NCBI GenBank assembly: GCA_964590105.1
Contig: CAZPYM010000001.1
Span: forward strand, 236,746 to 300,745
Reading direction: 5' to 3'
Length of the DNA stretch: 64,000 nt
Source: an uncultured Gammaproteobacteria bacterium
Lineage (GTDB): Bacteria; Patescibacteriota; Patescibacteriia; UBA11705; JABHMO01
The translations under genes were made by a program, and so were the position numbers. Below, piece by piece: positions 2,995 to 44,449 of the stretch. A model generated the notes under the pieces. That model did no database searches and was not told the DNA's origin. It saw nothing but the letters and a program-made list of their open reading frames with translations. Each line of letters begins with the position of its first letter. Positions within the stretch are counted from its first letter, which is position 1.

Positions 2995-4551
2995 ATGATT
3001 ACTTCTGAACAATTATTGGTATTGACAGGTGAAACGTTAAGCATCAATGATATTGTCGATGTTGCGCGTCATAAACGCATGAAGGTTATTATTAGTGAAG
3101 AAACAAAAAGTAAAATGCAAGCTTCCCGAGATTATGTGGCTAAAGTCGCAAATGAAAAAAGAGTTGTCTACGGCGTCACCACTGGTTTCGGAAAATTTAA
3201 AAATGTTGTTATTGCGCAGGATCAATTGTGTCAAATGCAAGAAAATTTAATTATGAGCCACGCTGTGGGCGTGGGTGAGCCGCTCAAAGAAGAAGAAGTC
3301 AGAGCGGCTGTTTTAGTCAGGGCAAATTCTTTGGTAAAGGGTTATTCTGGTGTGAGAATCGAATTGGTTGAAAAACTGCTTGAATTGGTCAATGCGGATA
3401 TTTACCCTTATGTTCCCTGCAAAGGATCAGTCGGCTCAAGCGGCGATTTGGCTCCATTGTCGCATATTATGTTGGTAATTCTTGGTATGGGTGAAGTGAT
3501 AGAAGGCGGCCAGAGAAAACCAAGCAATGAAGTATTGGCAAGGCTTGGGATTCAACCAATCAAGCTGGTGGCAAAGGAAGGCCTGGCGCTTATTAATGGT
3601 ACTTCAGTAATGACAGGTATCGCGGCCTTAGCAATTTTTGACGCAGAATTATTGACCCAAATGGCGGATATCTCCGGCGCAATGACACTTGAGGCTACTA
3701 TGGGTACGGTTGCTGCTTGTCATCATATGGTCCATTTAGCGAGACCTCATATTGGACAGCAAACTGTCGCTGAAAATATTCGTAGGCTATGCGCGGATAG
3801 CGCAATCGGTTATTCACATCGAAACTGTGATCGCGTGCAAGACGCTTATTCTCTTCGTTGTATGCCACAGGTGCATGGGGCTGTCAGGGATTCACTTCGA
3901 CATATTCGATCAGTAGTTGAAATAGAATTAAATTCCGCCACGGATAATCCTTTGATATTTCATGATTATGATTTAATTATTTCTTGTGGAAATTTTCACG
4001 GCGAACCAATTGCTTTTGTCATGGATTATCTTGGAATTGTTATTGCTGAGCTCGGAAATATTGCCGAGCGTCGGATTTGTCGGATGGTTGATCCGGCGAC
4101 CAGCGAAGGTTTGCCGGCGTTTCTTATTCCGCATGAACAGGCCGGCCTTAGCAGCGGTTACATGATTTCTCACTATACGGCGGCCGCAGTAGTTTCAGAA
4201 AATAAAATTTTGGCTCATCCTGCTAGCGTTGATTCGATTCCGACATCAGCAAACCAGGAAGATCATGTCAGTTTTGGAACAATTGCCGCCAGAAAAGCTA
4301 GACAAATTATTGAAAATGTATATGAAGTGATTGGAATTGAATTGATGAGCGCGGCGCAGGGGCTGGATTTTCATAAACCTTTGCTTCCCGGCCTTGGTTG
4401 TCAGGCGGCCTGGGAAATGATCCGTCAGTTTGTGCCATTTTCAGAAAAGGACAAAATTTTATATCAAGATATGCAGACTATCAGAAAAGAAATAATGCTT
4501 GACGGCAAAATTGTTCAGCATGTTGAGCAGAGGATCGGCAAATTGAGTTAA
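2995..4551 (+). CDS. hutH: Histidine ammonia-lyase family (MIO-dependent aromatic amino-acid ammonia-lyase/aminomutase)
   Basis: 518 aa. Signature 'GSVGSSGDLAPLSH' corresponds to the HAL 'GSVGASGDLAPLAH' MIO motif, with Ser-Ser-Gly in place of Ala-Ser-Gly. The protein shows similarity to HAL throughout. Confidence 0.8.
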   Translation: MITSEQLLVLTGETLSINDIVDVARHKRMKVIISEETKSKMQASRDYVAKVANEKRVVYGVTTGFGKFKNVVIAQDQLCQMQENLIMSHAVGVGEPLKEEEVRAAVLVRANSLVKGYSGVRIELVEKLLELVNADIYPYVPCKGSVGSSGDLAPLSHIMLVILGMGEVIEGGQRKPSNEVLARLGIQPIKLVAKEGLALINGTSVMTGIAALAIFDAELLTQMADISGAMTLEATMGTVAACHHMVHLARPHIGQQTVAENIRRLCADSAIGYSHRNCDRVQDAYSLRCMPQVHGAVRDSLRHIRSVVEIELNSATDNPLIFHDYDLIISCGNFHGEPIAFVMDYLGIVIAELGNIAERRICRMVDPATSEGLPAFLIPHEQAGLSSGYMISHYTAAAVVSENKILAHPASVDSIPTSANQEDHVSFGTIAARKARQIIENVYEVIGIELMSAAQGLDFHKPLLPGLGCQAAWEMIRQFVPFSEKDKILYQDMQTIRKEIMLDGKIVQHVEQRIGKLS

Positions 4552-10480: not shown

Positions 10481-10554
10481 GGGTACGTAGCTCAGTTGGT
10501 TAGAGCAACGGATTGTGGCTCCGTAAGTCGCGGGTTCGATTCCCGTCGTACCCC
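10481..10554 (+). tRNA. tRNA-His (anticodon GTG), second copy; C at -1 (no encoded G-1), C73, no encoded CCA
   Basis: Acceptor GGGTACG/CGTACCC; D-arm TAGCTCAGTTGGTTAGAGC; anticodon stem ACGGA/TCCGT with loop TTGTGGC; T-arm GCGGG TTCGATT CCCGT. Base -1 is C, and CTT follows C73. Confidence 0.85.
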
Positions 10555-10561
10555 CTTCAAT

Positions 10562-10668: not shown

Positions 10669-11499
10669 ATGAAAGGCGAATATTTAATCTGTTTGGAGGT
10701 TGACAATACACTGCTCGATAGAAATTATCGCGCCACTTCGCCGACCATAAATTCGGTTATCAATCAGCTGTCGGCAGAAGGACATATTTTTATTTTGAAC
10801 TCAAACAGAGCGCTGGAAGACTTGTTGTCAATAGCGAAAATTTTTGAAATTGCCGGTCCGGTTATCGGCGAAAATGGCACCTTTATTTATTATCAGGATT
10901 TGGGAAAAACCGAAACTTTAATTGATGATGCTGTCTTGGGTCAGATTGAGCAAATTAAAAATGCAATTCCAGGTCTGATAAACAGTTATTTTCCGGAAGC
11001 AATGTTTCAAATCGGCGATACGACTGATATCAATAAGCACCTGGATATTCAAGAAATTCCGCGCGACAAAAAACTTTTGTTTTTCATGAATGAATTCCGT
11101 AGATACACTATTAGTATACACGTAAAGAAAATTGAAAACGGAGTGTTGAGCAAAGACATTACAACTGCAGGCAAACTGTGCGGTTTAATTGCTGAATACA
11201 TTGAAAAAAATAAAATGTCTTTGCGCGCAAGTTATACAGAATCATATGCCAATGTTCTGGTTTGCCCGACAACTACTGACAAGACCAGGGCGTATAATTA
11301 TTTGGTCCAAAAATTCCCGAAACATTTGCGGATATTTATTGCGGATGACGCCGATGACAAACCTGTGACTGGAGGCGATTACTTATTCGTCGTGAATAAC
11401 GCCACTCAGGAAGCAAAAAACATGGCAAATTATGTTTCACTTGAAAATATAACCAAGGGAGTGGAAGATATTTTATTAAAAATGGATAGATTAATATGA
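10669..11499 (+). CDS. HAD-superfamily (Cof-like) hydrolase, variant motif I (EVDNT)
   Basis: N-terminal 'LICLEVDNTLLD' aligns to the HAD DxDxT motif with Glu at the nucleophile position. The C-terminus has a 'DDADD'-like acidic motif. 276 aa. Confidence 0.45.
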   Translation: MKGEYLICLEVDNTLLDRNYRATSPTINSVINQLSAEGHIFILNSNRALEDLLSIAKIFEIAGPVIGENGTFIYYQDLGKTETLIDDAVLGQIEQIKNAIPGLINSYFPEAMFQIGDTTDINKHLDIQEIPRDKKLLFFMNEFRRYTISIHVKKIENGVLSKDITTAGKLCGLIAEYIEKNKMSLRASYTESYANVLVCPTTTDKTRAYNYLVQKFPKHLRIFIADDADDKPVTGGDYLFVVNNATQEAKNMANYVSLENITKGVEDILLKMDRLI

Positions 11500-12056
11500 G
11501 AAAATATCAAATCGGAGTCATGGGTTCGGCCGCTGATTTAAAATATGAAAAAGAATTGGAAAAAATCGCCGAAACAATTGGCCGGCTTATTGCCGAAAAC
11601 GGGCATACAACAGTTTACGGCGCTGAAAAAGACTATGATTCTCTGTCAACAGCGGCGGCCCGGGGCGCAAAAGCTGCCAATGGATTGACTGTTGGTGTTA
11701 CTTATGGCCGAGGAAAAGATATTTGGGACAAAAATGATAATACGGATGTGATCATTTGCAGCGGACTAGAAAGAGGCGGCGGCAGAGAATTTGTTTTAGT
11801 TAATAGTTGCGACGCGTTAATTGCGGTAAGCGGCGGATCCGGTACGTTGAGCGAGCTTGCAATTGCTTATCAGTTGGATATTCCCTGCATAGTGATTGAA
11901 AATACTGGCGGTTGGTCTGATAAATTAGCCGGACAATTTCTTGATCAGCGAAGCAGACGAAAAATAATTGGAGCAAAAAGCGCAGAAGAAGCAGTGGCAA
12001 AAATATTGGAAATTCTTCAAAACGAAATAAATAGTCCTTCGAAGTCTGCTAAGTAG
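11496..12056 (+). CDS. LOG/TIGR00725-family Rossmann-fold protein
   Basis: 'GVMGSA...' N-terminus and 'SGGSGTLSELAIAY' (PGGxGTxxE-like) motif. 186 aa. Confidence 0.5.
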   Translation: MRKYQIGVMGSAADLKYEKELEKIAETIGRLIAENGHTTVYGAEKDYDSLSTAAARGAKAANGLTVGVTYGRGKDIWDKNDNTDVIICSGLERGGGREFVLVNSCDALIAVSGGSGTLSELAIAYQLDIPCIVIENTGGWSDKLAGQFLDQRSRRKIIGAKSAEEAVAKILEILQNEINSPSKSAK

Positions 12057-12062
12057 TAAGTC

Positions 12063-12098
12063 GCGAGTGGTGAGTTAAACTAATTACTCACCACTCGC
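12063..12098 (+). terminator. 13-bp perfect hairpin GCGAGTGGTGAGT-N10-ACTCACCACTCGC (terminator-like, weak T-tract)
   Basis: Perfect inverted repeat directly after the LOG gene stop. Confidence 0.45.
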
Positions 12099-12158
12099 CA
12101 CTTATTAATTTATTGAGTTTATATATCATAGTTCATTGAAAGTAATAATGGAGGGAGC

Positions 12159-13238
12159 ATGACTGAAATAGCAGGGAAGCTCGAGGGAACTGGCAGAAAC
12201 AAGTACCTGGTTTCCGGTGATTTGCGAGTCATAGTCGGAAGATGGCTTGGGTCAAAGGGACCATTTTTTCTGCCCGACAAAAAATTGTTTGAATCTTTGC
12301 AATCAGCAGTAGTCGAAAAGTTGGAGGAAATATTCCAGCCTCGCGGGGTGGATGTGGTTTATTTGCCGTGGGATCACCTTAAAACCGGAATCCTACTGCA
12401 TATTGCCAATCACGCGGGCGATGTACCGGTTGTATCGCTGGATCAGGTCTATGTTGAAGAGGGCACCGCTGATATATATCTTGATGCAAATCGCATAGTC
12501 AAATGGTCAAAGCACACTGAAGGTGTTGATTGGCGGCAGGGATGGAGTGAAATTGGCCACGGACCTCGGCGTTCTGACTATGGAATCGCTTCGCAGCTTG
12601 AGCGTATTGTCAATCAGGGACGTATAAAGCGCATGCAGGACAAAAGAGTCGTGGTGGTGGATGACGGCACCTGGACAAGAGGGTCTCTTATTGCAGCGAA
12701 AAACCTTTTGGCAAGCGTCGGGATACGAGTTGATAAGTTTATAGTTGGAATTGAAATCAGATCAGGAACTGAAAAAGATGAAACCTTTGAAATCCCGTTT
12801 TTGTGGGTTGAAAAGTTTTGCAAGGAAGCTGTGGTTGACTGGGTTGGCGAAAGGGATTTTTTCCCAGGAGTCGGGTTTTCCGGCAGAACAGTAGGAGAAT
12901 TGATTGAAAATAACACTGAACCGGCGACGTTTCGACAGTTTTATATTTCCATGCCGATGGAAGGTAATTATGGCGCGCCGTATGTCATGCCGCTTGGTGA
13001 TCCAGTGACCTGGGCTAATGTCCCAGAAAAAAAGGCAATTGAATTTTCAATGTTCTGTCTTGACTGCGCAATTCAGCTTTATACCGCAATTGAAGCGGAA
13101 ACTCGCAGGATTACCGGACAATCCATCAAAATAAAAGTCAGTCATCTCGAACGACCGCCGTATTTTTACAGAAAGATCAAAGACATGCCGGTGACAGAAG
13201 CTCTGGCCAGCTCAAGAAAAATCTTGGAAAACATTTAA
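12159..13238 (+). CDS. Hypothetical protein with phosphoribosyltransferase-like motif, GC-rich
   Basis: 'RVVVVDDGTWTRGSL' resembles the type I PRTase PRPP-binding loop. No other recognisable family. 359 aa. Confidence 0.35.
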   Translation: MTEIAGKLEGTGRNKYLVSGDLRVIVGRWLGSKGPFFLPDKKLFESLQSAVVEKLEEIFQPRGVDVVYLPWDHLKTGILLHIANHAGDVPVVSLDQVYVEEGTADIYLDANRIVKWSKHTEGVDWRQGWSEIGHGPRRSDYGIASQLERIVNQGRIKRMQDKRVVVVDDGTWTRGSLIAAKNLLASVGIRVDKFIVGIEIRSGTEKDETFEIPFLWVEKFCKEAVVDWVGERDFFPGVGFSGRTVGELIENNTEPATFRQFYISMPMEGNYGAPYVMPLGDPVTWANVPEKKAIEFSMFCLDCAIQLYTAIEAETRRITGQSIKIKVSHLERPPYFYRKIKDMPVTEALASSRKILENI

Positions 13239-13250
13239 TTAATTGCAAAT

Positions 13251-13276
13251 GAAGCGTGCTACACGCTTCTTTTTTG
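13251..13276 (+). terminator. Intrinsic terminator GAAGCGTG-loop-CACGCTTC + T6
   Basis: 8-bp stem plus TTTTTT directly after the stop at 13238. Confidence 0.7.
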
Positions 13277-13307
13277 TAACATTTTAGTTTTTTGCTCGTC
13301 ATAATAT

Positions 13308-13335
13308 TTGACAGACAAATATATTTGCTTATAAT
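13308..13335 (+). promoter_or_regulatory. Consensus promoter TTGACA-N16-TATAAT
   Basis: Exact -35 and -10 hexamers. It lies upstream of a structured ~150-nt leader that ends in a terminator. Confidence 0.55.
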
Positions 13336-13342
13336 GAATACA

Positions 13343-13489
13343 TATGGCCTTGCAAAACAGTAATAATTCATGGGAAAAGAAATACCGCAAACACGCAGAC
13401 TGCAGACTGTTTTGTATGGAAAAATTCTGATCGACGTCTAAAATAAGTTTACATACAAAACAGCTCGACATGGCTGTTTTCTTTATTTT
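13343..13489 (+). ncRNA. Candidate cis-regulatory leader / small RNA with mutually exclusive 12-bp stem and terminator
   Basis: CTGTTTTGTATG (13406-13417) is a perfect inverted repeat with CATACAAAACAG (13451-13462). The second arm overlaps the terminator stem ACAGC-N8-GCTGT + TTTTCTTTATTTT (13459-13489). A tandem GCAGACTGCAGACTG lies upstream of the first arm. Confidence 0.35.
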
Positions 13490-13658
13490 ACGAGATAGCT
13501 TTAATACATAGGACAAATATGCAAAGCAAAATTCCCAACAATCAATTATTGCGTCCGGCCGGAACCAACATGACGGATTGCTTTGTGTTTTTAACTCATA
13601 TTATAAACAGAAATCAGTCCATCATGGGCTGATTTCATTGTTTCAAAAGGAGGAAGTC

Positions 13659-14168
13659 ATGGAAAAATCACAGCTTCGCCAGGCAAATGGTCAGGATCTG
13701 ATACACATGGAAGAAATTTTTCAGCTGATTTTTGAAGAAAATCGGAAAAGTTTGATGGCTTACAAAGAGCGGGAAGAATTAAAAGCGGAGATAGTAAACG
13801 GCCAAGCGTTCCTGCTTTTTTTGGACGAAATCCTGGTAGGCTATTGCTCATACAAAATTTGGCAGTCGTGCATCGAAATCATGAGTCTGGTTTTGCGGGC
13901 AAAATATCGACAGCGCGGATATGGATTTACGCTTTGCTATTACGTGGTAAATCTGGCAAAAGAACTTTGGCCCGACAAACTGATTTTGGCCTTGCCAAAT
14001 GACAATTCAGTTGGAATTCTACAGAAGTGTGGTTTTGTAGAGTTTCCAAAAGTGGAATTACCCGATGAGTTGCGGCAGTCATGTGCAGGTTGTCTTGAGT
14101 ATAATGATTTTCCTGACTGCCATTGTCAAACCTTGCGTTTGCCTGGAAAAATTAAAACAATGAAATAA
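13659..14168 (+). CDS. GNAT family N-acetyltransferase with Cys-rich C-terminal tail
   Basis: SD AAAGGAGGA then ATG at 13659. 'QRGYGFTL' acetyl-CoA binding motif. C-terminal 'CAGCLEYNDFPDCHC'. Confidence 0.6.
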   Translation: MEKSQLRQANGQDLIHMEEIFQLIFEENRKSLMAYKEREELKAEIVNGQAFLLFLDEILVGYCSYKIWQSCIEIMSLVLRAKYRQRGYGFTLCYYVVNLAKELWPDKLILALPNDNSVGILQKCGFVEFPKVELPDELRQSCAGCLEYNDFPDCHCQTLRLPGKIKTMK

Positions 14169-14174
14169 TAATCG

Positions 14175-14198
14175 CGGGAGAGCGCGAGCGCTCTCCCG
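14175..14198 (+). terminator. 10-bp GC-rich palindrome CGGGAGAGCG-CGAG-CGCTCTCCCG (terminator-like, no T-tract)
   Basis: Perfect hairpin a few nt after the GNAT stop. Confidence 0.4.
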
Positions 14199-14220: not shown

Positions 14221-15342
14221 ATGAATGAAGTTCAATTATTGAAAAATTTAATTTCCATTGATTCACAGTGCTCAAAGTCGAATAAAAAAATTGTTGATTT
14301 TATTGTCTCCCTTTTTCCCGCGAAAAATTGTTTTATTACGCCACTCAAAAAAGCTGATTTAAATTTGTATAATTTGGAAATCAGATTCAAGGGAAAAAAA
14401 AGTGGCCGGCCGCTCATTTTTAGCGGGCATACTGATACTGTCCCAACTTCAAATAGATGGAAAAAGGATCCGTTTCATCCAGTTGTTTCCGACAATAAAA
14501 TTTACGGCCTAGGTTCGAGCGATATGAAGGCCGGCGTTGCCTGCATGATAAAAACCGCGCAATCTTTAATCGGCATAATTCCGGCTTGCGACGTGATCTT
14601 CCTATTTGACGCTGATGAAGAGGGCGGCTGTACCGGCGGAAAAAGTTTTATTAAAAATAAAAAGATCAAAGCGGGTTCGGCCAAAGTGGTTGTTTGCGAA
14701 CCAACGGGCGGGCGTTTGCGAGTCGGACAAAAAGGCGCAATTGAGATTTACGCGACTTTTCGCGGCAAAGCATTTCATGCCAGTCGTACCAGTTTTGCAA
14801 AAAATTTAAAACTAAATGCCATTCATAAAGCGCTTCAGGGAATGAAAGAACTTGAAAAATTGGAAAAAGAGCTTGAGAAAAAGAAAGACAAGCAGTTCAA
14901 TTTTCCAACGCAGGCGATTTGCCGCATATCCGGCGGTACCGCGGTAAATGTTATTCCGGATGAATGCAGTTTTGTAATCAACCGCCGTGTTTTACCGAGT
15001 GAAAACATGGATCAGATTGTCAAACAAATTTCTGGCTGTTTAAAAAAGATTGACCCACGGGTTGAAATAAAGATTGGTTTTTTGGGAGCGCCTAATTTGC
15101 TTCCCCTAACCAGTGAGTTATTGAAAATAACAAAAAAAATTACTGAAAAAGTTTGGAAGCGGGCTGTAGTCGCGGTTGAACCGGGCTGGACACAGGCAGG
15201 ATTATTTAAAAAATGGGGCGACTGTTTGATCTGGGGGCCAGGCGAAATAACTATGGCGCATCAGGCAGACGAATATTGCCCGATCGGCGATCTCGAAAAA
15301 ATGACTACATGCTACAAAAAACTAATTGAATTGCAGAATTAA
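14221..15342 (+). CDS. M20 family metallopeptidase (ArgE/DapE/aminoacylase type), second copy
   Basis: 'SGHTDTVP', 'GLGSSDMKAG' and 'DADEEGG' motifs. 373 aa. Confidence 0.8.
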   Translation: MNEVQLLKNLISIDSQCSKSNKKIVDFIVSLFPAKNCFITPLKKADLNLYNLEIRFKGKKSGRPLIFSGHTDTVPTSNRWKKDPFHPVVSDNKIYGLGSSDMKAGVACMIKTAQSLIGIIPACDVIFLFDADEEGGCTGGKSFIKNKKIKAGSAKVVVCEPTGGRLRVGQKGAIEIYATFRGKAFHASRTSFAKNLKLNAIHKALQGMKELEKLEKELEKKKDKQFNFPTQAICRISGGTAVNVIPDECSFVINRRVLPSENMDQIVKQISGCLKKIDPRVEIKIGFLGAPNLLPLTSELLKITKKITEKVWKRAVVAVEPGWTQAGLFKKWGDCLIWGPGEITMAHQADEYCPIGDLEKMTTCYKKLIELQN

Positions 15343-15432
15343 AAATTCTTTAAGTATGCGGTGCAATATTCAATGCATTATTAATAAGAAAAAGAGCTGT
15401 GATTAGGACAGTTCGGCTTTAAGTTTGAATAA

Positions 15433-15462
15433 AGAGCCGAGCTGTTCGCCCGGCTCTTTTTG
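15433..15462 (+). terminator. Intrinsic terminator AGAGCCG-loop-CGGCTCT + TTTTTG
   Basis: Hairpin plus T-tract between the M20 gene and the following GNAT gene. Confidence 0.5.
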
Positions 15463-15490
15463 TTTCCAAGCAAATCAACCGGAGGAAAAA

Positions 15491-16018
15491 ATGCAACAAC
15501 AAATCCAATTACTGCACAGTTCTGAAGAATTTCGGCTGGTGCATTTGGCCGACACGTTCATGGAGTTATCGGAACGCTTCAAGCAAGAGGAACATTTGCT
15601 TGGCAAAGAACCCGAAGAGCTGATGAGGCAGTTTTTAAACGGCCTGTCAGTGGTGGCTTTCAGCGGTTTTCAAATCGTCGGCCATTTAACGCTTTGGCAT
15701 TTAGAAGGCGACTGGTATGAATCCGGCTCCATCTGGGTGCATCCGCGGGCCAGACGCGAAGGTTTGGCCACAATGCTAAAGAAAGAGCTGGTCAGACGCA
15801 GTCCGCATTTCAATGTTCTTTCCACTACCACCAATAGCGTGGTCATGCGCATGAATGGCTCTCTGGGAATTCCGGAACTCGATTTTTGGGAATTGCCGCT
15901 GGAAATCCATAGCGCTACTTGTATTTGTTCCGCTGAAAAAATGCAGGCCGACTGCTTTCACGATTGCCGATTGAAAAATCAGCAATGCAGATTGTTCGTG
16001 CGACGGCGCCTGGAATAA
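15491..16018 (+). CDS. GNAT-like acetyltransferase, GC-rich
   Basis: SD GGAGG then ATG (MQQQIQLL...). 'VGHLTLWHLEGDWYESGSIWVHPRARREGLATML' resembles the GNAT core. Start trimmed from ORF 15425 because of the upstream terminator and SD. Confidence 0.5.
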   Translation: MQQQIQLLHSSEEFRLVHLADTFMELSERFKQEEHLLGKEPEELMRQFLNGLSVVAFSGFQIVGHLTLWHLEGDWYESGSIWVHPRARREGLATMLKKELVRRSPHFNVLSTTTNSVVMRMNGSLGIPELDFWELPLEIHSATCICSAEKMQADCFHDCRLKNQQCRLFVRRRLE

Positions 16019-43054: not shown

Positions 43055-44449
43055 ATGATTAACAACATTCAAAAATTTAAGGCAAAAACTGGACTGATCT
43101 GGAGTCTTTTGTTTGGCTGGGCTTTGGCAATAGGTTTGTTGTGGCCGGGAGAAGAGCCTTCAAAAATCAATACGCTAATTGTAATAGGTATAGTTTTTAG
43201 TTTGGCATACACTATCATTACTTTGGCTTATCGATCCAAAATTATCAAGTCAAAAATTTACTGGATGGTTGTTTTCATGATTATGATGACGCTTGTTGTA
43301 ATTGTTTTGCAATTTATTTTGACTGGCTCTGATATCGGCCATCGTGAGATTGAAGGTTTTGATCCTGTCCGTTATGATTACGAAGCCAAAATCGCCGTTG
43401 AAAATAATTGGGACTTTACGGCAGCGAAAGGCAGCTATAATTTTCTAGGCGTAATTTATTATATCGCCGGTATTTATTGGTTATTCGGTGTCAGTACTTT
43501 ATATGTAAGCCTTTTTAACTTACTTTTTGTTTTAACCGGCTTTCTCGCAGTTACGAAAATTTTAGTTGATCAAACGAATGAAATTCAGCCATGGCAAAAA
43601 ATGGCCTGGGGGATGTTAATTCCGAGTGTAATATATTATGCCGCGCTAACATCAAAGGATATTCTGACCATGTCTCTAATTGCAATTATTTTATGCCTGG
43701 TAAACAGGTTACTCAATAAAAAAAAATTATTGCTATTGCTCTATTTAGCTATTTGCAGTGGGGCACTCATTATGATTCGAGCCAGCGCCTTAATTATTGT
43801 CATTATTGTCACAGCTTATATAATCCTCTTTATGAGAAAGAACAAAAAGTTTGTTATTTACGCTTTATTTATACTAATTATTTTATCGATTATCGCACTA
43901 CAACTCGCGCCTATAATAACCGAACAATTAGGCGGGACACCGTTTAGGATTTCAACGTTATTAGCGCTTGAACCAAAAATAAAAATGGCGGAGGAATTAA
44001 GTACCAAGGGCTCATTGAATCTATTGTTCACCCCAAAAACATATATTCAGGTTGTACTTTTTATGCCAATCCGAGCCCTATTCTTATTGATTGCGCCTTT
44101 CCCTAATATCTGGATCTTGGGCAGTTCATCAAAAATAAAATTTGATGTTTTAAGCCTTTGGTTAATTCTATTATATCTACCAGCTTTGTTTGCCGCAACT
44201 ATTTCAAGAAAAATCCGCAAACTAGATATTTATAAATTTATTGTTATTCCATTTTGGTTAATGCTGATTACAATTGCTACAGCCCTATTCATTATTCATG
44301 AACGTTACCGCCTAATGTTTATGCCTCTCTGGTTTGCCGCCATCCTTCTCGCTTTTCACTATGATAATCCGCGAAAATATATTTTTTTATCATTGGCTTT
44401 TATTGTCTCTGGTGCGATTTTCTATGCTTTACTGAAATTAGTAGCTTAA
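43055..44449 (+). CDS. Polytopic membrane protein (possible Wzy-like polymerase/ligase)
   Basis: Ten or more TM helices. Confidence 0.3.
   Translation: MINNIQKFKAKTGLIWSLLFGWALAIGLLWPGEEPSKINTLIVIGIVFSLAYTIITLAYRSKIIKSKIYWMVVFMIMMTLVVIVLQFILTGSDIGHREIEGFDPVRYDYEAKIAVENNWDFTAAKGSYNFLGVIYYIAGIYWLFGVSTLYVSLFNLLFVLTGFLAVTKILVDQTNEIQPWQKMAWGMLIPSVIYYAALTSKDILTMSLIAIILCLVNRLLNKKKLLLLLYLAICSGALIMIRASALIIVIIVTAYIILFMRKNKKFVIYALFILIILSIIALQLAPIITEQLGGTPFRISTLLALEPKIKMAEELSTKGSLNLLFTPKTYIQVVLFMPIRALFLLIAPFPNIWILGSSSKIKFDVLSLWLILLYLPALFAATISRKIRKLDIYKFIVIPFWLMLITIATALFIIHERYRLMFMPLWFAAILLAFHYDNPRKYIFLSLAFIVSGAIFYALLKLVA

Follow-up and report, generated by a model that had tools for sequence, protein, structure and literature searches.

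The intergenic DNA at positions 13308-13489 of the stretch analysed here (64,000 nucleotides of contig CAZPYM010000001.1, called the window throughout) is probably a ribosome-mediated leader-peptide transcription attenuator of the trp/his type. A ribosome translating a short leader open reading frame (ORF1) would determine whether RNA polymerase terminates or continues into an operon for a GNAT N-acetyltransferase, a deacylase and a second GNAT. An earlier note on this DNA, made from the letters alone, had reported a promoter, an inverted repeat that shares one arm with an intrinsic terminator, and a GNAT gene downstream, and had proposed a candidate riboswitch, an attenuator or a small RNA (sRNA). 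ORF1 and a third pairing partner (segment 1, 13348-13361) had been overlooked. With segment 1 added, the design is that of a classic attenuator, in which four segments form the pairings 1:2, 2:3 and 3:4. The promoters, segments, leader ORFs, second unit and operon genes described below are on the + strand.

Promoter, inverted repeat and terminator

The element, called the GNAT leader in the following, lies in the intergenic region 13239-13658, between the gene for a 359-aa PRTase-like protein (12159-13238) and the GNAT gene. Its promoter is of the sigma-70 type (13308-13335) and consists of TTGACA (13308-13313), a spacer of 16 nucleotides (nt) and TATAAT (13330-13335), as the earlier note had described it. 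It matches the consensus in 12 of 12 positions. On both strands of the 64-kb window, there are only two such matches; based on the base composition, we estimate that about 0.1 would be expected by chance. Transcription is predicted to start at about 13342-13344.

The perfect 12-bp inverted repeat was likewise found as reported. It pairs CTGTTTTGTATG (13407-13418) with CATACAAAACAG (13452-13463), and it can be extended to 16 nt at 94%. The repeat is not random: none of 2000 dinucleotide-preserving shuffles of 13342-13490 reached a perfect repeat of 12 bp. The 3' arm of the repeat is at the same time the 5' arm of the terminator, the stem of which pairs AAAACAGC (13457-13464) with GCTGTTTT (13473-13480) and is followed by TTTTCTTTATTTT up to position 13489. 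The earlier note had considered that this terminator might simply serve the upstream gene 12159-13238. For that gene, a separate terminator with six T behind it is present at 13251-13269, and the terminator of the element therefore does not serve it.

Conservation of the element and its linkage to the operon

Comparative data had to be collected from diverged loci (designated by L numbers). Contigs with an identical GNAT protein, as retrieved by an exact-protein look-up, have intergenic DNA that is 100% identical and hence carry no comparative signal, and a search of 5.8 billion proteins returned only one close homologue of the window GNAT. Among the samples with identical contigs are JGI 3300028191 and 3300028162 and ENA ERZ27248920. 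Contig scans seeded with the upstream PRTase-like protein gave one locus among genome contigs and seven loci among metagenome contigs; when the leader was compared with these loci by BLASTN, it matched L011 only, and weakly. Diverged copies were obtained via homologues of the flanking proteins, with a covariance model built from the first eight sequences, and by direct inspection of the loci. The leaders of L012 and L014 were recognised only by the covariance model.

With this strategy, 10 distinct leaders in five lineages were identified, each located directly upstream of, and co-oriented with, a GNAT/M20 deacylase operon. The lineages are the window and L008; L011, L017, L019, L021 and L024 (plus the truncated L010), referred to below as the L011 group; L023; L012 (= L013); and L014 (= L016). 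GNAT identity ranges from 86% down to 39%, the lowest value being reached between lineages. In L017 and L024, the upstream neighbour is a different gene in divergent orientation. The leader is thus kept with the operon even where the upstream gene has changed, which indicates that the element belongs to the operon and not to the PRTase-like gene.

At the position homologous to the window promoter, a promoter with 10-12 of 12 consensus matches is present in the window, L008, L011, L017, L019, L021, L023 and L024. L014 has only a promoter of the 9/12 type (GTAACA-N18-CATAAT), and no clear promoter was seen in L012. A 9/12 site of the same form, GTAACA-N18-CATAAT, is also present in the window at 13276-13305, directly upstream of the consensus promoter. 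Its CGTCATAAT motif is kept in L008, L012 and L014, and in L014 the CATAAT -10 box of this site lies 6 nt before the leader ATG. The consensus promoter of the window lineage may therefore have been inserted later, or it may provide a second start. In the window, L019 and L023, the DNA from the terminator to the start of the GNAT gene was found to contain no other promoter-like sites of at least 9/12.

The earlier note had also drawn attention to a tandem repeat. GCAGACT GCAGACT G is present around 13394-13408, but conservation already fails in L008, the closest relative, where GCAGACTGCGGGCTG is found at this place. We take the repeat to be incidental.

The window has a G+C content of 37%, and its proteins occur only in metagenome assemblies and one NCBI record. 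Homologues of the PRTase-like protein are named Candidatus Falkowbacteria and Patescibacteria group, and the taxonomic placement is based on these names; a further homologue, with 53% identity, is found in L009 (CAZPBK010000001.1).

Three alternative helices conserved with compensatory changes

Segment 1 (13348-13361), which would be the 5' arm of an anti-antiterminator, lies within codons 2-6 of ORF1. Segment 2 (13406-13422, core CTGTTTTGT) is located inside the 3' end of ORF1 and can pair either with segment 1 (via 13406-13419) or with segment 3. Segment 3 (13448-13464) is the 3' arm of the antiterminator when paired with segment 2, and the 5' arm of the terminator when paired with segment 4 (13473-13489), which comprises the terminator 3' arm GCTGTTTT and the U-rich tail TTTTCTTTATTTT. 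On the predicted transcript, the arrangement is constant, with segment 1 at about nt 5-19 and segment 2 at about nt 56-77. The stop codon of ORF1 is situated between segments 2 and 3; by our count, it is separated from segment 2 by about 3-16 nt and from segment 3 by 15 nt or more.

The 1:2 duplex has a folding energy of -17.2 kcal/mol (z = -4.2). Across the collected leaders, folds of the sub-regions gave -10 to -27 kcal/mol for 1:2, -16 to -28 for 2:3 and -8 to -20 for 3:4, and in each of the sequences the antiterminator 2:3 exceeds the terminator in stability. When the naked leader RNA is folded, the structure of minimum free energy combines 1:2 with the terminator. No conserved secondary structure was found in the 40-nt stretch between segments 1 and 2.

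To what extent these helices are maintained can be seen from the proportion of alignment cells that are paired, compared with the same count after sliding one partner. For helix 2:3, 92% of the cells are paired in the 10 sequences versus 38-51% with the partner slid, and for helix 1:2, 82% versus 36-57%. For helix 3:4, the count was made on eight sequences and gave 90% versus 26-73%, with L023 out of register. A single MAFFT register could not hold 3:4 for all lineages, and the evidence for this helix consists of the eight-sequence count and the folds of the individual sequences. A terminator hairpin followed by a T-run is present in all lineages.

The comparative alignment that the earlier note had suggested revealed compensatory changes in all three helices. 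In helix 2:3, four pairs have changed on both sides, and the covariation score is above that of all 500 shuffles. The most instructive case is L014, where G66 in segment 2 is replaced by U (CTGTTTT to CTTTTTT) and both alternative partners have changed as well, C15 to A in segment 1 and C124 to A in segment 3. Pair 15:66 of helix 1:2 is thus CG in nine sequences and AU in one, and the terminator 3' arm of L014 is altered to match the change in its segment 3. In the L011 group, A-to-G changes in segment 3 yield G:U pairs in 2:3, where segment 2 is constrained by coding, and are compensated to G:C in 3:4. Compensatory changes from A:U to G:C are visible at two positions of the 3:4 stem. In L008, the terminator stem is kept while its 8-nt loop is almost wholly replaced.

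The core of segment 2 is invariant or nearly so across the alignments, and the most conserved block of the element is GGCTGTTT(T)GT. In L012, this segment is read in a different frame, and its conservation therefore acts on the RNA. The proposal that mutually exclusive stems precede the GNAT operon has in this way been borne out, as the competition between 2:3 and 3:4 is conserved with covariation in five lineages. Overall, we regard the covariation evidence as good but not overwhelming.

A leader ORF that evolves like a coding sequence

ORF1 (13344-13430) comprises 28 codons, with the sequence MALQNSNNSWEKKYRKHADCRLFCMEKF and a stop codon at 13428-13430. Its ATG is found 8 nt after the -10 box and is not preceded by a Shine-Dalgarno sequence, for which there is no space after the -10 box. 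If ORF1 is translated, it is therefore predicted to be leaderless or to have a 5' untranslated region of at most 2 nt. In six sequences, the leader ATG follows the -10 box at a distance of 8 nt; the distance is 6 nt for L024 and L014 and 11 nt for L023.

All five lineages have a homologous ORF of 25-29 codons. The reading is open in a single frame only, and the length differences between lineages are multiples of 3 throughout, i.e. only in-frame insertions and deletions have occurred. In the L011 group, the events counted in the ORF1 frame divide into 7 synonymous and 4 nonsynonymous ones, compared with 1:9 and 0:10 in the other two frames. Under random substitution, such a synonymous excess would have a P of about 0.001. 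The fraction of variable sites is 12% in ORF1, 70% in the loop past the stop codon and 10% in the terminator. ORF1 thus evolves like a translated ORF and is probably translated.

At the amino-acid level, the peptides share a Y-R-K core, which is present in four of the five lineages and reads S-R-K in L023. The codons of this core vary synonymously (TAC/TAT, CGC/CGT/CGA and AAA/AAG). In all lineages, Lys, Arg and His are frequent in the middle of ORF1, although their enrichment is only 1.7-2.2-fold. When the leader peptides were compared with Pfam and NCBIfam, no family match was obtained.

Other uses of a small ORF at this place were considered as well. A type I toxin-antitoxin small ORF was rejected: ORF1 encodes a basic, hydrophilic peptide, conservation is lacking for the antisense ORFs, and no antisense promoter of at least 9/12 was found within 13308-13489. 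Antisense ORFs do run across the leader, with 85 aa in the case of the window and 86 aa in that of L011, but their homology does not extend past the stretch complementary to ORF1, and in L023 the antisense frame is interrupted.

A working model

Taken together, the features of the element suggest the following course of events. The strong sigma-70-type promoter would start the transcript at, or at most about 2 nt from, the AUG of the 28-codon ORF1. As long as no ribosome is present, segment 1 (codons 2-6) would pair with segment 2 (codons 21-26), the 3:4 terminator could form, and transcription would stop at about 13489. A ribosome that runs smoothly to the stop codon at 13428-13430 would mask segment 2, and the terminator would form again. 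A ribosome that is held up within roughly the first dozen codons would block 1:2 and leave segment 2 exposed, so that 2:3 could form and RNA polymerase could read through. The polymerase would then cross a second ORF-plus-hairpin unit (13513-13643, see below) before it enters the operon.

The stall might be caused by a limited supply of charged tRNA for the basic residues in the middle of ORF1 and of the ORF of the second unit (Arg, perhaps also Lys or His). That the signal is arginine or a different basic amino acid is only a guess, made because basic residues are clustered in both leader ORFs and because it would be in keeping with an ArgA-like and an ArgE-like enzyme.

A second conserved unit between the terminator and the GNAT gene

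The earlier note had mentioned the approximately 170 nt in front of the GNAT gene as a distance. They turned out to hold a second conserved structured unit with its own ORF (13513-13643). Between the terminator and the GNAT ribosome-binding site, the DNA is conserved above the level of the GNAT coding sequence when the window is compared with L008, and homologues of the unit are present in L008, L011, L017, L019, L021, L022, L023, L024, L012 and L014. Its first part (module 2, 13516-13591, from an RNAalifold consensus) has a closing helix of 13 bp, formed by AATATGCAAAGCA (13516-13528) and TGCTTTGTGTTTT (13579-13591), around an inner hairpin. The second part (module 3, 13610-13636) is a hairpin, GAAATCAGTCC-ATCAT-GGGCTGATTTC, followed by the T-rich ATTGTTTC, directly upstream of the GNAT ribosome-binding site. 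The stem of module 3 covaries among lineages (CAGTCC/GGGCTG, CAGTC/GACTG and CAGCCT/AGGCTG).

A second small ORF that starts with ATG (ORF2, 13519-13632) overlaps module 2. Its frame is open in all 10 sequences, and the other two frames are full of stops. The centre reads like H-R-x-x-R-R in all but one of the five lineages, and ORF2 has a 2.3-fold enrichment in Arg (P 0.003). As it shows no synonymous excess (7:25), a conserved protein was rejected; ORF2 may still be a translated regulatory ORF. The covariance model of the first unit matches the region of the second unit with a weak score of 26 bits, which suggests that the second unit is a tandem duplicate of the first and possibly a second attenuation stage. 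One could go further and assume a two-stage, clade-specific sensor, in which ORF1 (Y-R-K) and ORF2 (H-R-x-x-R-R) each gate a switch, either as metabolite-dependent ribosome-arrest motifs or through the charging of Arg, His or Lys tRNAs. We consider this extension unlikely. Should it be true, it would provide a handle on the role of an ArgA-like acetyltransferase and an ArgE-like deacylase in these bacteria, and leaderless, translation-coupled attenuation would for the first time have been described as a means of regulation within the Candidate Phyla Radiation.

Alternative explanations

The option of a ligand-binding riboswitch was abandoned. The approximately 60 nt between the promoter and the first stem are an ORF that evolves like coding sequence, and no conserved aptamer-like fold was found. 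In Rfam, which the earlier note had suggested searching, there is no family for the element: 13308-13489 gave no hit at E values up to 10, and the only hits in the window at the gathering threshold are four tRNAs. The leaders of L012, L014, L019, L023 and L024 gave nothing at E up to 1. Hits obtained with permissive thresholds in the region of the window and in the relatives are at chance level and all lie outside the element. Of the pair "riboswitch/attenuator" in the earlier note, it is thus the attenuator that is retained, without evidence of an aptamer.

Another explanation is that the element is an independent small-protein gene. The functional product would then be the basic peptide of 25-29 aa, the pairings would be coincidental, and transcription of the operon would depend on read-through or on a promoter that has escaped recognition. 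The purifying selection in the L011 group (7 synonymous to 4 nonsynonymous events), the retention of Y-R-K across lineages by way of synonymous codons, and the consensus promoter and terminator that flank ORF1 are in line with this idea. Nevertheless, we consider it improbable. Beyond Y/S-R-K, the peptide is poorly conserved in L023 and L012 and it matches no protein family, while the best-conserved block, segment 2, is read in a different frame in L012. A small-protein gene would also leave the compensated helices 1:2 and 2:3 without explanation, and it would not account for the constant position of the element, which in all cases directly precedes, and is co-oriented with, one and the same operon, for which no further promoter was detected.

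There is similarly little chance that the attenuator works independently of translation, i.e. that a metabolite, a protein or a tRNA binds to the leader and selects either 1:2 plus 3:4 or 2:3, with a fortuitous or secondary ORF. In favour of this, the switch of three helices is conserved, ORF1 lacks a Shine-Dalgarno sequence, and known attenuators that respond to proteins or ligands follow the same logic of terminator and antiterminator. The Rfam searches described above, which include T-box elements and riboswitches, gave no hit, however, and the interval between segments 1 and 2, instead of a conserved structure, shows substitutions of the coding type, in-frame indels and an ATG fixed to the -10 box.

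If translation is involved, the ribosome could also be stalled by the nascent chain rather than by a shortage of charged tRNA. In such a sensor of the TnaC, SpeFL or Erm-leader kind, Y-R-K(H/F) would arrest the ribosome in response to a small molecule or an antibiotic and expose segment 2. The conservation of Y-R-K at the amino-acid level with synonymous variation and the lack of a run of identical regulatory codons would fit, and a ribosome stalled at codons 14-16 would, as estimated with an assumed footprint of about 30 nt, sit in the 1:2 loop and leave segment 2 free. GNATs moreover include drug- and metabolite-modifying enzymes. We still regard this variant as quite improbable, since none of the known arrest peptides or families resembles the peptide, L023 has a degenerate core (S-R-K), and no ligand is indicated.

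Finally, it is very improbable that the terminated transcript is a trans-acting and possibly dual-function sRNA like rnTrpL of Sinorhizobium: a strong promoter and a terminator would delimit a discrete RNA of about 145 nt and attenuator-derived sRNAs are documented (PMC6614838), but no target or seed region was identified, the conservation is accounted for by the ORF and the switch helices, the linkage to one operon is strict, such an RNA would be compatible with the cis mechanism rather than an alternative to it, and the free-standing role offered in the earlier note found no support.

Several observations also weigh against the leader-peptide attenuator that we prefer. Classical amino-acid attenuators are recognised by a single amino acid repeated in tandem, and the ORF1 peptide has no such run of any amino acid. 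Its enrichment in individual residues is weak (Arg 1.8-fold, P 0.05; Lys 1.7-fold), and part of the peptide conservation acts on the RNA, as the conserved Ser6 and L-F-C coincide with pairing segments. Leaderless initiation is predicted from the promoter spacing as its sole basis, and in L012 the leader ATG is located about 18 nt past the best -10 candidate, thus leaderlessness is not universal. ORF2 has neither a Shine-Dalgarno sequence nor a promoter of its own nor a transcript 5' end at which initiation could take place. With a stem of 8 bp, 3 G:C pairs and about -9 kcal/mol, the terminator of the window is weak. The covariation rests on five independent lineages, and the shuffle controls ignore their relatedness. 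Moreover, the minimum free energy of the whole leader is no better than that of shuffles (z = -0.84); this value is uninformative, because the competing structures cancel each other out.

The genes of the operon

The GNAT gene begins with ATG 13659 and is preceded by a strong Shine-Dalgarno sequence, AAAGGAGG (13646-13653), in agreement with the earlier note, which had placed a GNAT gene with such a signal about 170 nt downstream of the element. It encodes a protein of 169 aa (13659-14168, Pfam PF00583), which also has a weak, below-cutoff similarity to models of ArgA-like N-acetyltransferases. The next gene encodes an M20 deacylase of the ArgE/DapE family (14221-15342; TIGR01910, 224 bits at a cutoff of 218), and a second GNAT (15425-16018) is the third gene of the putative operon. 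The order GNAT, M20 deacylase, GNAT after the leader is found in L001, L008, L011, L021 and L025. Across the lineages, the GNAT is followed by an M20 deacylase of the ArgE/DapE family and usually by the second GNAT.

In the 52-nt gap between the GNAT and M20 genes, there is a GC-rich perfect hairpin, CGGGAGAGCG-CGAG-CGCTCTCCCG (14175-14198), with no T-run on the + strand. It resembles a terminator on the minus strand only and may serve as an mRNA stabiliser, a processing site or a partial terminator.

A His-codon leader in the same window

Besides that of the GNAT leader, the window has a single 12/12 promoter (TTGACA at 1127, a 17-nt spacer and TATAAT at 1150-1155), which introduces an element of apparently the same kind. 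Exactly 8 nt after its -10 box, ATG 1164 opens an ORF of 15 codons, MIIIHEIHHIHECPR, with four His and four Ile codons. The leader (1127-1265) can form the pairings 1:2, 2:3 and 3:4, and the terminator consists of GCCAGC-GCAA-GCTGGC and five T (1243-1264). It is followed by genes for tRNA-His(GTG) (1341-1416), histidyl-tRNA synthetase (hisS, 1535-2836) and an aromatic/histidine ammonia-lyase (2995-4551). From its sequence, 1127-1265 looks like a classical His-sensing attenuator with a leaderless leader ORF. As this leader shares the layout of the GNAT leader, the design proposed for 13308-13489 would appear to be in use elsewhere in the same organism. No counterpart of the His leader was seen upstream of hisS in L018 and L025. 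Leaderless full-length genes were also considered as additional support and dropped; the candidates at 43797 and 22255 sit inside longer ORFs.

The neighbourhood has a histidine theme, with two tRNA-His(GTG) genes (1341-1416 and 10481-10555), hisS and the ammonia-lyase. The genes at 10669-13238 encode a HAD hydrolase, a SLOG/LOG-like protein and the 359-aa PRTase-like protein, which occurs in Patescibacteria-like metagenomic sequences only. In relatives such as L017 and L019, the genes for histidyl-tRNA synthetase, lyase, HAD and PRTase-like proteins follow each other in a comparable order.

Significance and comparison with known systems

Very little is known about gene regulation in Patescibacteria (Candidate Phyla Radiation). 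A full-text literature search found no link between the Candidate Phyla Radiation and transcription attenuation, and Patescibacteria and leader peptides appeared together only in two incidental co-mentions. Bacteria of this radiation are generally thought to lack most amino-acid biosynthesis. The window appears to hold two cases of one compact design, made up of a consensus promoter, a leaderless mini-ORF and a three-way RNA switch. If this is confirmed, these reduced genomes would use translation-coupled attenuation together with leaderless initiation, and a covariance model for finding more members would be available. The inducer of read-through would furthermore be a regulatory clue to the function of the uncharacterised pair of GNAT and ArgE/DapE proteins.

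With the E. coli leaders trpL, hisL, pheL, leuL and thrL, the GNAT leader shares a short ORF near the promoter and four segments with the mutually exclusive pairings 1:2, 2:3 and 3:4. As in these classical attenuators, segments 1 and 2 lie in or near the ORF, the 3:4 terminator is upstream of the structural genes, and the antiterminator is the stronger structure. Unlike them, the GNAT leader has its ORF at the predicted 5' end of the transcript without a Shine-Dalgarno sequence, contains no tandem run of regulatory codons and belongs to no Rfam leader family. The genes that it would control encode a GNAT and an ArgE/DapE-type deacylase and do not make up a complete biosynthetic operon, and the host is uncultured and Patescibacteria-like.

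Leaderless leader peptides have been described in other phyla. In Deinococcus deserti, 14 leaderless leader-peptide attenuators were predicted upstream of aminoacyl-tRNA synthetase and amino-acid genes (PMC4007540), mycobacteria have polycysteine leaderless small ORFs (bioRxiv 10.1101/834739), and leader peptides of Corynebacterium glutamicum are reported to be linked to attenuation (PMC3890552). The GNAT leader is predicted to resemble the Deinococcus and mycobacterial leaderless ORFs in that transcripts start at most 1-2 nt from the AUG and the position of the ribosome sets the expression of the operon. It differs from them in phylum and in the composition of the peptide, as theirs are rich in the cognate amino acid, whereas the GNAT leader has a Y-R-K core and a second ORF-plus-hairpin unit. 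The mycobacterial Cys system moreover acts on translation by sequestering a ribosome-binding site, whereas the GNAT leader has a terminator.

The closest parallel in layout is the His leader at 1127-1265, which is identical to the GNAT leader in its 12/12 promoter, the ATG 8 nt after the -10 box, the short ORF, the three pairings and the terminator. It differs in that four of its 15 codons are for His and that its cognate target is clear, namely tRNA-His and histidyl-tRNA synthetase, and there is no sequence similarity between the two. The GNAT leader also has in common with ermCL, tnaC, speFL and bmrB that the ribosome on an upstream ORF would select the RNA structure or termination and that the peptide is partly conserved; it has no sequence similarity to them, and ribosome stalling on its ORF is hypothetical. 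The understanding of attenuation itself is not changed by the GNAT leader. It is a new sequence family within a known type of attenuator, the unusual traits of which are a Y-R-K core in place of a codon run and the tandem second unit.

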